DNA of 64,000 bases. Source: an uncultured bacterium. GTDB taxonomy: Bacteria > Krumholzibacteriota > Krumholzibacteriia > LZORAL124-64-63. Both the position numbers and the translations under genes were made by a program. The notes beneath the pieces are model-generated. The model saw only the letters and a list, made by a program, of their open reading frames with translations. It made no database searches and was not told where the DNA came from. This document shows, piece by piece, positions 26,190-34,986 of this stretch (the first letter of the stretch is position 1; each line of letters begins with the position of its first letter). Location of the stretch: assembly GCA_963732385.1 (NCBI GenBank), contig CAVSZB010000007.1, positions 864,001 through 928,000 on the forward strand. Reading direction: 5' to 3'.

Positions 26190-28838
26190 TCAGACCCCGG
26201 ACGCGGCTGCGGCCACGCCGCCGCTCTGCGCCAGTTTGACCAGGCCACTGGGATCGAGAATGAGTCCCACGCGTCCGTCGGGCATGATCGCACCGCCGGC
26301 GATTCCCGGCTGCGCCTGCATCGCCTTGCCCATGCTCTTGATCACGATCTGCTGCTGACCGAGCAGTTCATCGACCAGCAGGGCCGTCTGGCGGCCGTCC
26401 GCCTCGATTACCAGCGCCAGCGCGCGGGTCGGCTCGCGCTCCGCGTCCGGCACGCCGTAGAGGCGGTCGAGACGGTGCAGCGGCAGCAACTTCCCGCCCG
26501 CCGAGAGCATTTCGCCGCGGCCCAGGACCGAGGCCACGTCACCCGGCGCCGGCTGCACGGTGCGGACGATCGAGAGGGTCGGCACGATGTAGCGCTCACG
26601 GCCCACCCGCACGATCATGCCGTCGATGATGGCCAGCGTCAGCGGCAGACGGATGCTGAACGTGCTGCCGCGGCCCGCCTCGGAGCGGATCTCGACCGCC
26701 CCGCGCAGCGCCTCGATCGAACGCCGCACGACGTCCATGCCGACACCGCGCCCCGACACCTCGGTGATCTTCTTGGCCGTGGAGAAGCCGGGCTGGAAGA
26801 TGAGGTTGTAGATCTCGCGATCGGAGAGGGTCTCCCCCTCGCGCACCAGACCGCGCTCGATCGCCTTGGCCAGGATGGCGGCGCGGTCGAGGCCGCGGCC
26901 GTCGTCAGAAAGCTCGACGTAGATGTTGCCGCCGCGATGGTAGGCGCGCAGCTCGACCCGCCCCTTGTCCGGCTTGCCGGCCTGCCTGCGCGCCTCGACC
27001 GACGCCTCGAGCCCGTGGTCGACCGCGTTGCGCACCATGTGGACGAGCGGATCCCCGATCCGGTCGACAACCGTCTTGTCCAGCTCCGTATCCTCGCCCG
27101 TGACGACGAATTCGACCGGCTTGCCCGCTTTCACGGAGAGGTCGCGCGACAGGCGGGCCATCTTCTGGAACGTCGCCTTGATGGGCACCATGCGCAACGA
27201 GGTGGCCATCTCCTGCAGTTCGCGCGTGATCTTGTCGAGCAACCCGAGCTGGCGCGCCAATTCGCCGTCCACCGTTGCCCGTTCCTGCAGCGACTGGCTG
27301 ACCATCAGCTCCGCGATGACCAGCTCGCCGATCGCGTCCACCAGCCGGTCGAGCCGGTCGGTGTCGACCTTGACCGCTTCCTTCACCGTGACGGTCTGAG
27401 CTGCCGGAGGCGCCGCGCGTGTCGCCGCTGCACGGCCCTCCGCCGCCTCCGCAGCCGGCGCGACGGGGATCCGAACGTCCGTGTCAGACACGATCGCGGT
27501 GGCGACCGGCGGCGCGGCGCCGGCGTCCGAAACGGCGGCCGGCGACGCTTCCCCGGCCGACACGGCGCGCAGGCTCGCCAGCAGGCCCGGCAGTTCCGGT
27601 TCGGAGATCAGCCCGCAGCCGCTCTCGAGCGCGGCGCGCAACGCCTCCACGAGCCGTTTCATGAGGTCCACCGAGGAGAAGGTCACCTCGATCGCCGATC
27701 CCGTGAGGGTCAGCTTCCCCTTGCGCGCCCGGTCGAGCAGATTCTCCGCTTCGTGGGCGAGCTTACCGATGTCGTCGAGCCCCAGGAACCCGGCCACTCC
27801 CTTGATGGTGTGGAAGGCGCGGAAGATTCCGTTGAGCGCATCGTCCTGGCGGGGGTCGGCTTCCAGCGCCAACAGGTGGCCTTCCGCCGCATCGAGATGT
27901 TCGCACGCCTCGCTGACGAACTCGCCGAGCAGCGACGGGTCGCCGCTCAGGGGGACCGATGTCGTCGTCCCCACCGTCGCGTCCGTCACCGGCGGCTGCG
28001 CGGCGGGAGCCCCTGAGGGCTTCGCCTTCGCCTGGGGAGCGACGGGCGCGGCCGCCGTCAACGCCGTCAGCGCGCCGTCGCCTTCGCCCTGGAACATGGC
28101 AAGCAGCTCGCCGGACGGGGCCGGTTGTTCGCAGGCGCCGCGACAGAAGGCGAACATCAGTTCGAGCCAGTCGCGCGCCTCCAGAAGCGGCTGGACGAGC
28201 GTGATCGCGGGACGCGCCTGCAGGGCGTCCTCGATCGCGTGACAGAGATGTTCGACCTCGTGCAGACCGAGCAGCGCGGATTCGCCCTTCACCGTGTGCA
28301 CCTGGCGCCGCAGCAACGCCAGCTTATCGCCTTCAGCGTCGTTCCCCGCCTCGATGGCCAGAATCGCCGCCTCGATCTCCTCGAGCACGCCCCCCTGACG
28401 TCCCAGAAATTCGGCGTAGATCGCCGGCTCGACATGGGACGGCAGTGCGCCCGGGTGACGCATGCCTTCGGGCAGGGCGGGCCGGGCGGCCGCCACGCCG
28501 GCGGCGAGCCCGAGTTCGGAAGGCAACTCGACGGTGGCCGGATCACGCCCTTCGCACAACACGGCCTGCAAAGCCGATACTGTTCGTCCGACCACTTCGA
28601 GCGATGCGACCGGATCCGGAACTTCGCTCAGGATTACCTGTCCGAGCAGCGTGGCCGCGGCAGCGGCGGCGGCGACGGTCATCGCCCCCGAGGGGGGCAG
28701 TTCCTCGGCAAGTGCATCGAGCCAGCCGTGTACCTGCGCCAGGTCCTGCAGGTCGGCCGGCCCTGCGAGAACCAGGGTGCTCGCCGCCTTTTCCAGCAAC
28801 TCCTGCAGACGGGCCTCGCCAACGATCACGTCGGTCAT
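26190..28838 (-). CDS. cheA: Chemotaxis histidine kinase CheA with two Hpt domains
   Basis: HTVKG and FRAFHTIKG Hpt motifs; HMVRNAVDHG, DDGRG and SGRGVGMDVV; C-terminal CheW-like domain. Confidence 0.95.
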   Translation of the reverse strand: MTDVIVGEARLQELLEKAASTLVLAGPADLQDLAQVHGWLDALAEELPPSGAMTVAAAAAAATLLGQVILSEVPDPVASLEVVGRTVSALQAVLCEGRDPATVELPSELGLAAGVAAARPALPEGMRHPGALPSHVEPAIYAEFLGRQGGVLEEIEAAILAIEAGNDAEGDKLALLRRQVHTVKGESALLGLHEVEHLCHAIEDALQARPAITLVQPLLEARDWLELMFAFCRGACEQPAPSGELLAMFQGEGDGALTALTAAAPVAPQAKAKPSGAPAAQPPVTDATVGTTTSVPLSGDPSLLGEFVSEACEHLDAAEGHLLALEADPRQDDALNGIFRAFHTIKGVAGFLGLDDIGKLAHEAENLLDRARKGKLTLTGSAIEVTFSSVDLMKRLVEALRAALESGCGLISEPELPGLLASLRAVSAGEASPAAVSDAGAAPPVATAIVSDTDVRIPVAPAAEAAEGRAAATRAAPPAAQTVTVKEAVKVDTDRLDRLVDAIGELVIAELMVSQSLQERATVDGELARQLGLLDKITRELQEMATSLRMVPIKATFQKMARLSRDLSVKAGKPVEFVVTGEDTELDKTVVDRIGDPLVHMVRNAVDHGLEASVEARRQAGKPDKGRVELRAYHRGGNIYVELSDDGRGLDRAAILAKAIERGLVREGETLSDREIYNLIFQPGFSTAKKITEVSGRGVGMDVVRRSIEALRGAVEIRSEAGRGSTFSIRLPLTLAIIDGMIVRVGRERYIVPTLSIVRTVQPAPGDVASVLGRGEMLSAGGKLLPLHRLDRLYGVPDAEREPTRALALVIEADGRQTALLVDELLGQQQIVIKSMGKAMQAQPGIAGGAIMPDGRVGLILDPSGLVKLAQSGGVAAAASGV

Positions 28839-28912
28839 CGTTCCCCCTCGAACAGTCCGGGTCGGCAGCGCGGGATCGGCCTGGCGCACGGGTCGTGGTG
28901 CGACTTGTCATA

Positions 28913-29399: not shown

Positions 29400-29430
29400 T
29401 TGACAGGGCGGTAATACGTAGTATTAATAC
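29400..29430 (+). promoter_or_regulatory. sigma70 promoter with overlapping palindromic operator
   Basis: TTGACA at 29400 with an AT-rich -10 region; TAATAC-GTA-GTATTA (29412-29426) and GTATTAATAC (29421-29430) palindromes. Confidence 0.7.
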
Positions 29431-29471
29431 CGACTCGCATGTCCTCATGCTTCGACTAGAGGATAGTCGTC

Positions 29472-29765
29472 ATGCCGAACCACAAGTCGGAAATCATCAC
29501 CTTCAAAGCGGATCGTGCGCTGCTGCAGGCGATGCAGGGGCTGCCCAACCGCTCCGAATTCATCCGGTCGGCCGTGCTTGCAGCGCTCGACAGCGCCTGT
29601 CCGCTCTGCCGCGGCACCGGCATCCTGAGCGCGCAGCAGCGGCAGCACTGGTCCACCTTCGCACGCAGCCACACGGTTCAGGAGTGCACCGACTGCCACG
29701 AGTGGCACTTGGTGTGCGGTCAAGGCGAGCCCCCGGAGAAGAACAGCCATGTCGCACAGGACTGA
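29472..29765 (+). CDS. Ribbon-helix-helix (CopG-like) regulator with Cys/His metal-binding C-terminus
   Basis: IITFK beta-strand and NRSEFIRSAV helix; CPLC and H..ECTDCHEWHLVC; GAGGA RBS. Confidence 0.8.
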   Translation: MPNHKSEIITFKADRALLQAMQGLPNRSEFIRSAVLAALDSACPLCRGTGILSAQQRQHWSTFARSHTVQECTDCHEWHLVCGQGEPPEKNSHVAQD

Positions 29766-30687
29766 ACACTGTCTGCGACGACTCGCTGTGACGCTGCTGC
29801 TGCTGGGGATCGGTCTGGCGAGCCGGCCGGCCACGCCCGCGGGGCTCGCCGCGCCCGGACCCGCGACGCCTTCGGCGCTCATGACGTTCGTGACGATCCT
29901 GCCCCAGGCGTATCTGGTCCAGACGATCGCCGGCCCTCACGCGCGCGTGGAGGTGCTCGTGGGGCCGGGCCAGTCGGCTGAGACATACGAACCGACGCCC
30001 CGCCAGATGGCGGCGCTCGACGACGCCGTCGTCTATTTCCGGATCGGCGTCCCCTGCGAACGTTCCCTGCTGCCCAAGATCGCCAGACTCCATCCCGAAC
30101 TGCCGATCGTTGACGTGCGCCAGGGGATCCGCCTGCGCCCGTGGGAAGGCGACGACGGCCACGGCCACGACGAGGGCGACCCCCACATCTGGCTCGACCC
30201 CGCGCTGGCGCGGACCCAGGCCCGCACCATCGCCGCCACCCTCGCGCGGCTCGACCCGGCGCGCGCGGAGGCCTACGCCGCAGGGCTGGCGCGCCTCGAT
30301 GCCGAATTGTCCGCCACCGAAGCGGAGGTGGCGCGACTCCTGTCGCCATGGCGCGGCCGCTCCTTCTATGTGTTCCACCCCGCCTTCGCCTACCTCGGCG
30401 CCCCCTTCGGGCTGCGCCAGGTCGCCGTCCAGCGGGGCGGACGCGAACCGGCAGCGCGTGAACTGGCGGCGCTGATCGATCAGGCGCGGCGCGAGGGGGT
30501 ACGCGCGATCTTCATCCAGCCGCAGTACGCCCCGCGCAGCGCGCTCACGGTGGCCGAGGCGATCGGGGCGCGGCTCGTGCCGCTCGACGATCTCGCGCCC
30601 GACTATCCGGCCAACCTGCGCCGGATGGCGGCGGCCCTTGCGCAGTCGTTCACCGCCGATCCGGCCACCGCGCGAGAGCAGCCGTGA
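29749..30687 (+). CDS. znuA: Zn/Mn ABC transporter substrate-binding protein
   Basis: YEPTP, His-rich loop GHGHDEGDPHIWLDP, FHPAFAY and REPAAREL motifs. Confidence 0.88.
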   Translation: MSHRTEHCLRRLAVTLLLLGIGLASRPATPAGLAAPGPATPSALMTFVTILPQAYLVQTIAGPHARVEVLVGPGQSAETYEPTPRQMAALDDAVVYFRIGVPCERSLLPKIARLHPELPIVDVRQGIRLRPWEGDDGHGHDEGDPHIWLDPALARTQARTIAATLARLDPARAEAYAAGLARLDAELSATEAEVARLLSPWRGRSFYVFHPAFAYLGAPFGLRQVAVQRGGREPAARELAALIDQARREGVRAIFIQPQYAPRSALTVAEAIGARLVPLDDLAPDYPANLRRMAAALAQSFTADPATAREQP

Positions 30688-31463
30688 ACGCCGTCCCGGC
30701 CATTGCCGTCGGCGACCTCGCCTTCGCCTATCCGGGCGAGCCTCCGGTGCTCGAGGAGGTGACCTTCACGATCGCCGAGGGCGATTTCGTCAGCGTGGTC
30801 GGTCCCAACGGCGGCGGCAAGACGACGCTGCTGCGGCTGCTGCTCGGACTGCTCTCACCCTCGCGCGGCCAGGTGCGTCTTTTCGGCCTGCCGCCGGAGC
30901 AGGCGCGCCGTCAGATCGGCTACATGCCGCAGCACCCACAGCTCGATCCGCACTTCCCGGTCAGCGCTCGCGACGTGGTGCTGATGGGCTGTCTCGGTCC
31001 CGGCCGGCCGCGCGGCCTGTTCGGCCGCGACGACAAGGACGCTGCGCGGCGGGCCCTGGCCGAGGTCGGGCTCGAGGAGATGGAACGGCGCCCGTTCGCC
31101 GCCCTCTCCAGCGGACAGAAGCAGCGGGTGCTCATCGCCCGCGCCCTCGCCTGCTCGCCACGCCTGCTGTTGCTCGATGAGCCGACCGCCAACCTCGATC
31201 TCCACGTCGAGGGTGAACTGTACGCACTGCTGCGCGAGCTCAACCGCCGGCTCACGGTCGTACTGGTTTCCCACGATCTCGGCTTCGTCTCACGGTACGT
31301 GCGGACGGTCGTCTGCGTGAAGCGACGGGTGGCCGTCCACCCGACCAGCGAGATCACCGGCGAAATCATCCGTGACATGTACGGCGGCGACGTGCGGGTC
31401 GTGCGCCACGATCACGACGTGCCCTGCGCGGCCGCCGAACCGCCCGGAGGGGACGGCGCGTGA
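30684..31463 (+). CDS. znuC: Metal ABC transporter ATPase
   Basis: GPNGGGKT, IGYMPQ, LSSGQKQR, LLDEP and SHDL motifs. Confidence 0.9.
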   Translation: MNAVPAIAVGDLAFAYPGEPPVLEEVTFTIAEGDFVSVVGPNGGGKTTLLRLLLGLLSPSRGQVRLFGLPPEQARRQIGYMPQHPQLDPHFPVSARDVVLMGCLGPGRPRGLFGRDDKDAARRALAEVGLEEMERRPFAALSSGQKQRVLIARALACSPRLLLLDEPTANLDLHVEGELYALLRELNRRLTVVLVSHDLGFVSRYVRTVVCVKRRVAVHPTSEITGEIIRDMYGGDVRVVRHDHDVPCAAAEPPGGDGA

Positions 31464-32305
31464 GCGAATTCCTGCACGCCCTCAACACGCACGCCTTCCT
31501 GCAGCACGCCTTTCTGACCGGACTGCTGGCCAGCGTGGCCTGCGGCGTGGTCGGCAGCTACGTCGTGGCCCGGCGCATCACCTACATCGCCGGCGCCATC
31601 GCGCACTGCGTGCTCGGCGGCATCGGCGCGGCGCGCTGGCTGAACGTGGTCGGCGGCTGGACCTGGCTGCAGCCGCTCCACGGCGCGATCGCGGCGGCGC
31701 TGCTGGCGGCGCTCGTCATCGGGGTCGTCAGCCTGCGCTCCCGGCAGCGCGAAGACACCGTGATCGGGGCGATCTGGGCGATCGGCATGGCGGCCGGCAT
31801 CCTTTTCATCGCGCGCACACCGGGCTACCAGGAGGATCTCCTCGGCTATCTCTTCGGCAACATCCTGATGGTGTCGCGCGGCGATCTCTGGCTGGTGGCC
31901 GGTCTCGACGCGCTGGTCCTCGGCCTCGGGCTCCTCTTCTACCACCAGTTCCTGGCCGTCTGCTTCGACAGCGAGTTCGCCCGGCTCCGTGGCGTTCGCG
32001 TGGAACTGTTCTACCTGCTGCTGCTGCTGCTCACGGCACTGACCGTGGTCCTCCTGGTGACGGTCGTAGGCATCGTGCTCGTGATCGCCCTGCTCACGCT
32101 GCCGGCCGCGGTGGCCAACCACTTCTCGAAGACCCTCTGGCAGATGATGGCCATCGGCGCGCTCTGCTGCGCGTTCTTCACCACCGGAGGACTGGCGCTC
32201 AGCTACGCGGCCAACCTGCCGGCGGGCGCAGTGATCATCCTGCTTGCCGCGGCCGCCTGGCTCCTCCTCGATGTACGCCGCTTCGCGCGCCGGCCTCGCG
32301 GCTGA
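31460..32305 (+). CDS. znuB: Metal ABC transporter permease
   Basis: GSYVVARR, IAHCVLGG, YLFGNIL and FDSEFA motifs; multiple TM helices. Confidence 0.9.
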   Translation: MSEFLHALNTHAFLQHAFLTGLLASVACGVVGSYVVARRITYIAGAIAHCVLGGIGAARWLNVVGGWTWLQPLHGAIAAALLAALVIGVVSLRSRQREDTVIGAIWAIGMAAGILFIARTPGYQEDLLGYLFGNILMVSRGDLWLVAGLDALVLGLGLLFYHQFLAVCFDSEFARLRGVRVELFYLLLLLLTALTVVLLVTVVGIVLVIALLTLPAAVANHFSKTLWQMMAIGALCCAFFTTGGLALSYAANLPAGAVIILLAAAAWLLLDVRRFARRPRG

Positions 32306-32312
32306 GGACGCC

Positions 32313-33488
32313 ATGTTGTCGCACCGGATCGCCTGGGACCAGCCGCCGAATCGCCTGGCCGTTGCGCTGGCGGCCCGTCGCCTCGCCGGCCTGCCGATCA
32401 TCGACCTGACCGAGGCCAATCCGACGCGCGCCGGCCTCGCCCCCCCGGCGGAAGAACTGCGCGCGGCCCTGGCGACGCCCGGCGAGCATCTCTACGCGCC
32501 CGACCCGCGCGGACTGCCGGCGGCGCGCGCGGCCGTGGCCGCCTACTACGCCGACCACGGCGGACCCGTGGACCCCGCGCGGCTCTTTCTCACCGCCGGC
32601 ACGAGCGACGGCTACGCCTGGCTTTGCAAACTGCTCGCCGACCCCGGCGATGAGATTCTGGTCCCGGCGCCGAGCTACCCGCTGCTGTCGCTGCTGGCCG
32701 AACTCGAAGGGATCCGCCTCGTGCCATATCCGCTGGTCTGGCGCGAGGGAACCGGCTGGCGAATTGATCCGGACGCGCTGGCCGCGGCCAGCGGCCCCCG
32801 CACGCGGGCGGTGATCGTGGTGAGTCCGCACAATCCGACCGGCGCCATCATGGACGCGCGGGAACGGACCGGGCTCGACGCGCTTTGCGCCCGGCATGAT
32901 CTCGCCCTGATCGTCGACGAGGTCTTTCTCGACTATCCGGGGGACGGCTCGCCCGGCCCGCTGCCGTCGGCCGCGGCCACGGACGGCGAGGCGCTCACCT
33001 TCGTGCTGAGCGGACTCTCGAAGGTGGCCGCGCTGCCGCAGGTGAAGCTGAGCTGGCTGGTCTGCGGCGGACCCGCGCCGGCGCGCGCGCGCGCCCGGAG
33101 CGGTCTGGAGCTGATCGCCGACGCGTACCTCTCGGTCGGCACGCCGGTGCAACTGGCGACACCGGCTTTACTGGCCCTGCGGCACGCCGCCCAGGCGCGG
33201 ATCCGCGCCCGCCTGCGGGAGAACGAGTCGTGGCTGCGGGAAGCGTGCGCCGACCTGCGCTCGGGCCGGCTCCTGCCGCGCGAGGCGGGTTGGTACGCGC
33301 TGCTCGAAGGCTGGACCGGCGAGGACGAGGAGGAGTGGTGCCTGGCGCGCCTCGAAGAGGACGGCCTGCTCCTGCATCCGGGGTATTTCTTCGACTTCCC
33401 GCGCCGCGGCTGCCTGGCGCTGAGCCTGCTCGTTCCACCCGCGGAGTTCCGCGTCGGCGCGACGCGCCTGCTGCGGCATCTGGCCTGA
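32313..33488 (+). CDS. PLP-dependent aminotransferase class I/II
   Basis: PSYP, SPHNPTG, IVDEVF and SGLSK motifs. Confidence 0.88.
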   Translation: MLSHRIAWDQPPNRLAVALAARRLAGLPIIDLTEANPTRAGLAPPAEELRAALATPGEHLYAPDPRGLPAARAAVAAYYADHGGPVDPARLFLTAGTSDGYAWLCKLLADPGDEILVPAPSYPLLSLLAELEGIRLVPYPLVWREGTGWRIDPDALAAASGPRTRAVIVVSPHNPTGAIMDARERTGLDALCARHDLALIVDEVFLDYPGDGSPGPLPSAAATDGEALTFVLSGLSKVAALPQVKLSWLVCGGPAPARARARSGLELIADAYLSVGTPVQLATPALLALRHAAQARIRARLRENESWLREACADLRSGRLLPREAGWYALLEGWTGEDEEEWCLARLEEDGLLLHPGYFFDFPRRGCLALSLLVPPAEFRVGATRLLRHLA

Positions 33489-33508
33489 AGGGTTCGTCTC
33501 GGACCGGC

Positions 33509-33934
33509 TCACCGCGCGGTCAGCACCAGGATCCCGCCCACCGTCATCAGCAGGCCGACGACCGCGCGCGGCGAGACCGGTTCCCCACCGAGCCAGACCC
33601 CCATCAGCGCGCCGAACAGCGGCGATGTGAAAGCGATCGGCATGACCACGCCGAGCGGCGCCTGCCTGAGCGCCGCGTAGAAGCAGAGCATCCCGAGCGC
33701 CCCCGCCACGAGTCCGCCCCCGACGATCAGGTACGCCAACGCGCGCGGCGGCGCCTGCGCCACCGTCCGCCACTGCGGAAACGAGACGAGCGCCAGCACC
33801 GCCAGCGCCGTCGCTGTCCGCAGCGTGATGCCGACCTGCGGCGACAGCTGCCCCAGATGCAGCCCCTTCTTCTCGAAGTAGCCGCCCACGCCCCAGGCGA
33901 CCGCGGTCATCAACGCCAGCCACTGCGCTTTCAT
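33509..33934 (-). CDS. EamA/DMT-family single-domain transporter
   Basis: Five TM segments; AWGV...EKKGL, FYAAL...VVMPI and LGGEPVS motifs. Confidence 0.82.
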   Translation of the reverse strand: MKAQWLALMTAVAWGVGGYFEKKGLHLGQLSPQVGITLRTATALAVLALVSFPQWRTVAQAPPRALAYLIVGGGLVAGALGMLCFYAALRQAPLGVVMPIAFTSPLFGALMGVWLGGEPVSPRAVVGLLMTVGGILVLTAR

Positions 33935-33961
33935 GTCGCTCCTCCAGGCCGCCGAGCGGCC

Positions 33962-34582
33962 TCAGGCCAGGGGGATGAAGCGCCCCGTCGCGGCGTCATA
34001 GCCCAGCAGACGACCGCGCTCGAGATCGAAGTACCAGCCGTGCAGGGCGAGCGTGCCCGCCTCGACCCGCTCGGCCACCCACGGGAAGGTGAGCAGGTTC
34101 CGCAGGGAAAGCAGCAGCGAGGCCTGCTCGCAGGCGCGCGCCTGCAGTTCCAGCGGCTTGCCGGGCAGGCGGGCGAGCACTTCATCGCGCGCCTCCCGGG
34201 CGATCGCCACCCAGCGCGGCAGGAATTCGCCCTGCGCCCCCTCGATCAGCGCACGCACGCCGCCACACTGCCCGTGCCCGAGCACGCAGATGTGCGCCAC
34301 GCCGAGCGAGCAGACGGCGAATTCGAGGGCCGCGCTCACACCGTGCGTGGCGCCGTCGGATTCGTACGGCGGCACAAGGTTCGCGACGTTCCGCACCACA
34401 AACAGGTCGCCGGGACGCGCGTCGAGCAGGTGGGCGGGATCCACACGCGAATCGCAGCACGCGATCACGAGCGCATGAGGCCGCTGTCCGTGCCGCAATT
34501 CTGCATAGAGTTCGCGATCGCCGCCGAAGAACCGCACCTGGAAGCGCCGAAACCCGGCCAGGAAATCCTCGACGTCGCGCAC
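33962..34582 (-). CDS. can: Beta-class carbonic anhydrase
   Basis: GQRP, CCDSRV, RNVANLVPP, HGQCGG and LHGWYFD motifs. Confidence 0.93.
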   Translation of the reverse strand: MRDVEDFLAGFRRFQVRFFGGDRELYAELRHGQRPHALVIACCDSRVDPAHLLDARPGDLFVVRNVANLVPPYESDGATHGVSAALEFAVCSLGVAHICVLGHGQCGGVRALIEGAQGEFLPRWVAIAREARDEVLARLPGKPLELQARACEQASLLLSLRNLLTFPWVAERVEAGTLALHGWYFDLERGRLLGYDAATGRFIPLA

Positions 34583-34601
34583 GCGAACCCCCGGGTATGG
34601 A

Positions 34602-34627
34602 AAGGCCAACCGACCGCGGTTGGCCTT
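34602..34627 (-). terminator. Hairpin just downstream of the tmRNA 3' end
   Basis: AAGGCCAACCG-N4-CGGTTGGCCTT with only a short U tract. Confidence 0.5.
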
Positions 34628-34631
34628 GATC

Positions 34632-34986
34632 TGGTGGAGGCGGCGGGAATCGAACCCGCGTCCACAATCGGTTCTCTGCCAGCTTCTACATGCTTAGCCG
34701 CGCGTTCATTCTCGCCGGTCGGCAGGCTACGCGGCCCGCCTACCTTCCGGCCAGTTCCCTAATTTTCTCGCCCGTCGCCAAGGAACACGACTCGGGGCCA
34801 GGCACCGGAAAATTTCGCTCCGTGGACAGGGCCGCTGCCCCCCCCATCCGGGAACGCGCCGCCTAATTAGGCAGCGAGGGCAAACTGATTGTTGTCAGTT
34901 ATCTTTTTTCCACCGTTTTACGAGAGAGATGGGATCTCGGCATGCCGCCAACAGTCCCCCGACCGCGTCGAAGCCATGTCGCCCCC
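34632..34986 (-). ncRNA. ssrA: tmRNA, tag (A)DNNQFALAA
   Basis: 5' GGGGGCGACATGGCTTCGAC; 3' GACGCGGGTTCGATTCCCGCCGCCTCCACCA; tag frame GAC AAC AAT CAG TTT GCC CTC GCT GCC TAA at 34896-34867 after ATAACT. Confidence 0.96.

Follow-up and report, generated by a model that had tools for sequence, protein, structure and literature searches.

The 64,000-nucleotide (nt) stretch of DNA analysed here, referred to as the window, comes from an uncultured bacterium of the Krumholzibacteriota (GenBank GCA_963732385.1, contig CAVSZB010000007.1, positions 864,001 to 928,000, forward strand) and contains a metal ATP-binding cassette (ABC) transporter operon whose first gene encodes a protein of 97 amino acids (aa). 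Comparison of this protein and of the DNA in front of its gene across several phyla indicates that the two are very probably a real regulator-operator pair controlling metal-uptake genes, and it is probable, with rather less assurance, that the protein is a zinc-activated repressor predicted to bind two GTAWTAC boxes and to do the job of Zur where no Zur was found. Metal binding, zinc as the most likely metal and the oligomer state are what we infer from the sequences. An earlier note on this DNA had placed the small reading frame at the head of the operon, overlapping znuA, and this is confirmed: the regulator gene (29472-29765, + strand, from the open reading frame list), which is present in a single copy in this genome, shares 17 nt with the gene for the znuA-type solute-binding protein (SBP; 29749-30687, +), followed by those for the ABC ATPase znuC (30684-31463, +) and the ABC-3 permease znuB (31460-32305, +). 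These three match Pfam ZnuA, ABC_tran and ABC-3, respectively, over the cut-off, and their stops and starts also overlap. A likely ribosome-binding site for the regulator, AGAGGA (29458-29463, +), was inferred from the sequence.

The evidence for the pair begins with the operator, a conserved unit of the form GTAWTAC-N3-GTAWTA(H) at 29411-29427 with a box spacing of 10 bp. Box 1 (GTAATAC, consensus GTAWTAC; 29411-29417, +) is conserved in 51 to 57 of 57 sites at each position except the central W, and box 2 (GTATTAA, consensus GTAWTAH; 29421-29427, +) was delimited by comparison of homologous sites. With no more than one mismatch and within 200 nt upstream, the operator occurs at 57 of 62 core loci (59 at up to two mismatches), and the boxes of every counted site are 3 nt apart; three duplicate loci had been dropped from this set, and two of the 62 are copies in one genome. 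Control scans made with the first 34 loci found the operator in none of 930 other windows and in one of 3400 shuffles, while the present window holds two matches to the two-box pattern (one site read on both strands) versus 0.07 expected by chance. When the 3.8-Mb genome was scanned for the motif, as the earlier note had proposed, the regulator's own promoter was the sole site at zero or one mismatch. At the central W the two boxes vary independently of each other (AA 17, AT 16, TA 13, TT 8), which argues for two self-symmetric boxes and not for one fixed inverted repeat. Hence the palindrome TAATAC-N3-GTATTA proposed earlier stands as a conserved site, refined to two self-symmetric GTAWTAC boxes. 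Three interlocking half-sites had also been described, and their positions (29412-29417, 29421-29426 and 29425-29430) are correct, but only the last two overlap, and the third (TAATAC, 29425-29430, +), present in one of the 57 sites, is not conserved.

The operator lies where a repressor would be expected. A perfect predicted -35 hexamer, TTGACA, is found at 29400-29405 (+), and TTGAC begins 9-12 nt ahead of box 1 at 33 of the 57 sites; box 1 thereby falls within the spacer and box 2 on the -10 element. The -10 itself (TATTAA, 29422-29427, +, after a 16-nt spacer) is a prediction; it lacks the final T, and for this reason a strict sigma-70 scan called no promoter.

The genes behind these operators are mostly those of metal uptake, as had been expected from the linkage proposed earlier: znu genes lie within 2 kb downstream at 48 of the 62 core loci. 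At seven of the remaining 14 the regulator is followed by an unannotated His/Cys-rich membrane protein, two have a trans site before a separate znuACB, two are cut by contig ends, two (L006 and L010) have neither operator nor znu, and one (L007) is unexplained. Where znu lies elsewhere the operator stays with the regulator gene (L002-L005), and in two Phycisphaerae genomes whose regulator gene is not next to znu (L073, L074) a perfect site stands just before the separate znuACB. The same is seen in the G217 phylum (Desulfobacterota sample), where five of 18 carriers have a regulator-znuC-znuB operon without znuA and an orphan znuA bears the operator in three of the five (L202, L206, L209), and where one carrier has regulator-znuA-znuC and a detached znuB that bears it (L213). 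There are 12 perfect trans sites in these 18 carriers, nine of which precede uptake-type genes: three znuA or znuB genes, one operon containing znuA, two TonB receptors, two LbtU-family porins and an operon whose first large gene is 88% identical. The other three lie before an unknown exported protein (behind TTGACA), in an ambiguous position and in coding sequence. In contrast, the operator was found upstream of znu in none of 38 non-carrier znuACB loci of the window's family (40 were fetched; one without znu hits and one that was cut were dropped) and upstream of none of the 32 examined from the G217 phylum, among which a single match fell inside znuB. The operators before detached znu genes, TonB receptors and porins point to a regulon and not to autoregulation alone. 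Most one-mismatch trans sites were left uncounted, those above control level in Myxococcota included; they lie within coding sequence or before unrelated genes.

Other genes also lie at or near the operator. Four exported proteins under the operator have no Pfam or NCBIfam match (L203:3550-5007, L205:1006-2538(-), L206:3293-5080 and L211:3271-5010); those of L203 and L205 are 88% identical and have 20 His each, and it is possible that all four are outer-membrane metal channels. Further sites lie before or beside genes for small His-rich proteins (DUF2946-like, below cut-off) and for prepilin-type N-methylation proteins in Phycisphaerae and Victivallaceae genomes (L073, L075, L077). A conserved hydrophobic protein of about 215 aa follows the regulator at the seven loci without znu mentioned above (L002:767-1561, L004:5281-5916, L020:1271-1906, L021:5409-6062, L220:1715-2461, L221:811-1461(-) and L228:1632-2432). 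It has an invariant His, an invariant Asp and a PCC motif, gave 4805 database hits, matches no Pfam family and falls in unnamed Atlas clusters; it is a candidate for a new metal permease. In 13 non-carrier genomes this protein has no Fur-family neighbour and no clear box, and so these genomes do not help to identify the metal.

The 97-aa protein itself belongs to a family to which the databases give only general names. A search returned 396 homologs among 400 candidates, the 120 homologs listed had no precomputed Pfam domain, those with a name being called at best 'CopG family' or 'ribbon-helix-helix domain', and a profile search gave 189 representatives (50% clustering) at E up to 1e-10; no Pfam or NCBIfam model scored over its cut-off for the protein, and its nearest Atlas clusters are unnamed. 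Among the record labels of the homologs, a few of them doubtful, are Planctomycetota, Verrucomicrobiota, Victivallaceae, Zixibacteria, Ignavibacteriaceae, Sumerlaeota, Syntrophaceae, Desulfobacteraceae, Myxococcota and Spirochaetota. One member belongs to a cultured species, Desulfocarbo indianensis (KMY68253.1). The distribution is patchy, with the regulator in five of 201 genomes of the window's phylum and 18 of 301 of the G217 phylum (one extra hit at E 1e-3 was dropped), while 301 genomes of the G203 phylum contain 13 core members and 13 of a distant subfamily.

Two domains can be recognized. Approximately residues 5-41 (29484-29594, +) form a ribbon-helix-helix (RHH) DNA-binding domain by alignment, AlphaFold2 model and structure comparison, with F11, K12, N26, R27, S28, F30, I31 and R32 invariant. 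The model (predicted local distance difference test, pLDDT, 75) has a strand-helix-helix N-terminus with helices at 15-21 and 27-40, and although Pfam RHH_1 scores below cut-off (E 0.067), nearly all 50 rows of a VIA structure comparison are RHH proteins, at low Z scores of 2.3-3.6 (for example PutA52, Z 3.1, root-mean-square deviation 2.0, 39 residues aligned), which upholds the RHH-like N-terminus read earlier from the sequence. It is followed by a Cys/His domain of about 42 aa (29595-29720, +, from the alignment). The CPLC (C43-C46) and the H..CxxCHxxHxxC ligands described earlier (H67-x4-C72xxC75H76xxH79xxC82) are present as stated: C43, C46, H59, H67, C72, C75 and C82, seven candidate ligands, are invariant in 117 aligned sequences, H76 is kept in 101 and H79 in 100. 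The first half of this domain resembles anti-TRAP by sequence (E 2e-4), and Pfam DnaJ_CXXCXGXG matches the protein below cut-off. The domain is modelled at pLDDT 84, Foldseek gave no match at E up to 0.001 for the whole model or the domain, and VIA on the domain gave a best Z of 2.4, with no clear fold match and anti-TRAP not returned; the VIA result speaks neither for nor against a link with anti-TRAP. A natural 185-aa protein (P0121) consists of two full tandem copies of the regulator, a duplication that is as expected for a dimer and is suggestive only.

Based on these features, a single RHH dimer would use its two-stranded sheet to read each self-symmetric box, and a pair of such dimers would sit 10 bp apart on the same face of the helix as a dimer of dimers; established RHH behaviour is taken to suggest two dimers one helical turn apart. 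Binding across the spacer and -10 would block RNA polymerase. The four Cys of the two CxxC motifs would make up a structural zinc site and H59, H67, H76, H79 and C82 the sensing site, with zinc loading raising DNA affinity, perhaps by joining the two dimers, and zinc shortage releasing the operon. This division of ligands is suggested by the distant subfamily (L231-L243, G203 phylum; e.g., P0221, P0246), which keeps the RHH domain, CPxCxGxG and CxxC, often has extra C-terminal Cys motifs, is not linked to uptake genes and, in the sequences read, is without H76, H79 and C82. Several of its members have a degenerate upstream box (three of 13 within two mismatches), which supports the prediction that the protein binds its own upstream region.

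The proposed role is that of Zur, and none of the domains that define the known regulators was matched in the 97-aa protein: neither the FUR domain (PF01475), nor MarR or Fe_dep_repress at E 0.1, nor NikR_C, and the architecture differs from those of Zur, AdcR, DtxR and NikR, as had been claimed. In the window's family, a Fur-family gene stands first in 11 of the 38 non-carrier znuACB operons, and TGCAAY-N3-RTTGCA, which resembles the predicted ZUR_D box of Desulfovibrio, ATGCAACNNNGTTGCAT (PMC545781), is found upstream of nine of these 11 versus none of the 27 others. Orthologs of this znu-leading Fur-family gene are present in 12 of 42 non-carriers and none of five carriers, so that the anti-correlation with zur suggested earlier has the expected direction and lacks statistical strength (p 0.31). 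The genome of the window (completeness 95.8%) showed no such ortholog and no NikR domain, and its one Fur over the cut-off precedes feoB, next to a DtxR-family gene, and scores best as an iron Fur. A Zur-like profile made from seven znu-adjacent Fur seeds matched none of 18 carriers and 30 of 60 non-carriers; this count was rejected because the weaker hits mostly lack a znu neighbour and show motifs of the ordinary Fur/PerR type, and approximately 10 of 60 (the seven seeds and three znu-adjacent hits) was used instead. Two carriers have a Fur-family gene divergent from the regulator (L021:4179-4610(-), PerR-like by best score, and L107). In a quick SBP tree the regulator-led operons group apart from the Zur-led ones, which does not support a gene swap within the same operon; whole operons may have moved.

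That the metal is zinc is suggested by the SBP, whose closest solved relatives are the zinc-type ZnuA structures 1PQ4 and 2OV1 (E approximately 1e-49, versus approximately 1e-17 for Mn-type proteins), and most members carry His-rich loops. Cys/His-rich ligand sets favour zinc. In addition, FeoB, Fur and DtxR form a cluster of their own in this genome, which also encodes a separate Tro/Mnt-like SBP lacking the operator; sister znuACB operons of the window's family are partly Zur-led; and znu genes together with TonB receptors have the shape of a known Zur regulon (PMC4176598).

Several observations weigh against a zinc-activated substitute for Zur. Two core loci, L006 and L010, carry neither the operator nor znu, and 12 of the 13 distant-subfamily loci have no znu neighbour (one has), so that the Cys motifs kept there may be purely structural. 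In place of its first canonical His ligand the SBP has Glu78 here, and H, E, A or Q occupies this column across the subfamily, which varies in Zur-led members too. Two of the perfect trans sites precede porins of the LbtU siderophore family, and for the two operator-bearing TonB receptors the best score, though below cut-off, is that of a haem receptor, which hints at iron. Zinc-sparing genes such as ribosomal paralogs and COG0523 (listed in part after PMC6103462) were not found among the trans sites examined. The exclusion of Zur is weak: the window's family gives p 0.31, the Desulfobacterota sample 0.11 and the pooled data 0.013, values that come from non-independent kin and incomplete genomes. 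Finally, 27 of the 38 non-carrier operons (L158-L196) have neither regulator gene nor either box, and may be constitutive or controlled by other means.

The alternative that best survives, while still unlikely, keeps the protein, operator and regulon and makes zinc structural only, with the protein fixing expression by negative autoregulation or responding to another signal such as thiol redox. It would account for the distant subfamily, with both CxxC motifs and a degenerate box without a link to metal transport, and for the regulator's own promoter being the sole site in this genome, and it fits the closest sequence match of the domain, the anti-TRAP zinc ribbon, from a protein that assembles through its C-terminal helix (PMC11255114). 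However, the trans sites before detached znuA, znuB and znuACB and before outer-membrane uptake genes are hard to explain without a metal signal, conservation of the extra His/Cys residues is limited to the family linked to uptake, and the sister operons have a Zur-like gene and its own box in the same position.

Somewhat less likely again is a metal-sensing uptake repressor for Fe, Mn, Co or Ni. The LbtU porins, the haem-receptor-like proteins and the missing first His ligand of the SBP would all fit it, as would one site just after feoAB, another near a DtxR-family gene and the resemblance of the half-site to GTGTTAC, the predicted NikR half-site of delta-proteobacteria (PMC545781). Against this stand the distance of the SBP from the Mn/Fe-type solved proteins, the His-rich loops of most members, the separate Fur, FeoB and DtxR cluster of this genome, its separate Tro/Mnt-like SBP, which has no site, and the nature of the ligand set. 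It is very improbable that a different factor, such as NikR or a Fur protein, binds the site, or that the site is mere promoter sequence, with the small gene as a passenger. Box 2 does overlap the -10 and NikR half-sites are similar (PMC545781), but box 1, which lies in the spacer, shows the same degree of conservation as box 2, and none of 70 upstream regions of non-carrier znu genes has the site. Moreover, the site accompanies the gene where znu is elsewhere and drifts with the distant subfamily, no NikR domain was found in this 96% complete genome, and NikR sites have a spacing of N13/14 and not N3.

The proposed zinc-activated repressor can be set beside known systems, and it would work like Zur and NikR, through a conserved operator over uptake-gene promoters, while failing their defining domains. 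With NikR it shares an N-terminal RHH domain, a C-terminal His/Cys domain that by analogy would bind metal, presumed repression of an ABC metal importer and GT-led half-sites (PMC11672702, PMC545781), but NikR has the NikR_C domain, half-sites 13-14 nt apart and nik targets, and the present protein a Cys/His domain of only about 42 aa, boxes 3 nt apart and ZnuA-type targets; NikR senses nickel only according to a review (PMC11672702). Zur, including the predicted ZUR_D of Desulfovibrio, likewise heads znuACB, has its operator over the promoter and controls znu and TonB receptors (PMC4176598), and differs in its winged-helix Fur fold, unrelated operators and control of zinc-sparing genes, none of which were seen among the trans sites examined here. 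AdcR/ZitR of the MarR family are a precedent for a non-Fur zinc-uptake repressor (PMC6103462, PMC11672702), with another fold, size and set of taxa. The anti-TRAP (RtpA) pattern CPxCxGxG-x-IL-T-x2-Q-helix-F-x3-H matches residues 43-67, but in anti-TRAP, which lacks a DNA-binding domain, the helix is preceded by both CxxC motifs, whereas here the second CxxC comes after the helix, and it is possible that an anti-TRAP-like ribbon has been permuted in the regulator. Repressors of the CopG/Arc/MetJ type and RHH antitoxins share the RHH fold, and databases label members of the family 'CopG family transcriptional regulator', but here there are an extra conserved Cys/His domain and metal-importer neighbours, and no toxin partner was seen.

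Around the operon, a CheA-type kinase gene (26190-28889, -) lies upstream and divergent from it, a pyridoxal phosphate-dependent aminotransferase gene (32313-33488, +) begins 7 nt past znuB, and genes for an EamA protein and a beta-carbonic anhydrase follow on the minus strand (within 32313-34986), with a transfer-messenger RNA gene at 34632-34986. RNA runs yielded small-share contigs only, mostly 90-95% alike and from one study, with no start-site or expression evidence.

In two reviews, Zur and AdcR are the bacterial zinc-import regulators and NikR, specific for nickel, the RHH metalloregulator (PMC6103462, PMC11672702). No description of the present family or its operator was found in searches of full-text literature, which covered few subscription journals; this, together with a shared operator before metal-uptake genes across bacterial groups, makes a new kind of sensor likely. 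The full proposal, taken as a whole, is favoured by a narrow measure only: zinc-uptake repressors would have a third structural class in addition to Zur and AdcR, one that is also the first RHH zinc sensor, in which a permuted anti-TRAP-like ribbon would couple two dimers on a 10-bp-spaced operator, and which would replace Zur in many mostly uncultured lineages and in some control the unannotated His/Cys-rich membrane proteins, which would be a new metal importer. Delta-proteobacteria that have znuABC and lack Zur were pointed out in a 2004 study, which raised the question of a further mechanism (PMC545781), and the regulator family is a candidate for such cases. The operator of the family is distinctive enough for functions to be assigned by it to orphan transporters, to porins and to a family of unannotated membrane proteins, and a 97-aa sensor with a 17-bp operator would be easy to test and could become a compact metal biosensor.

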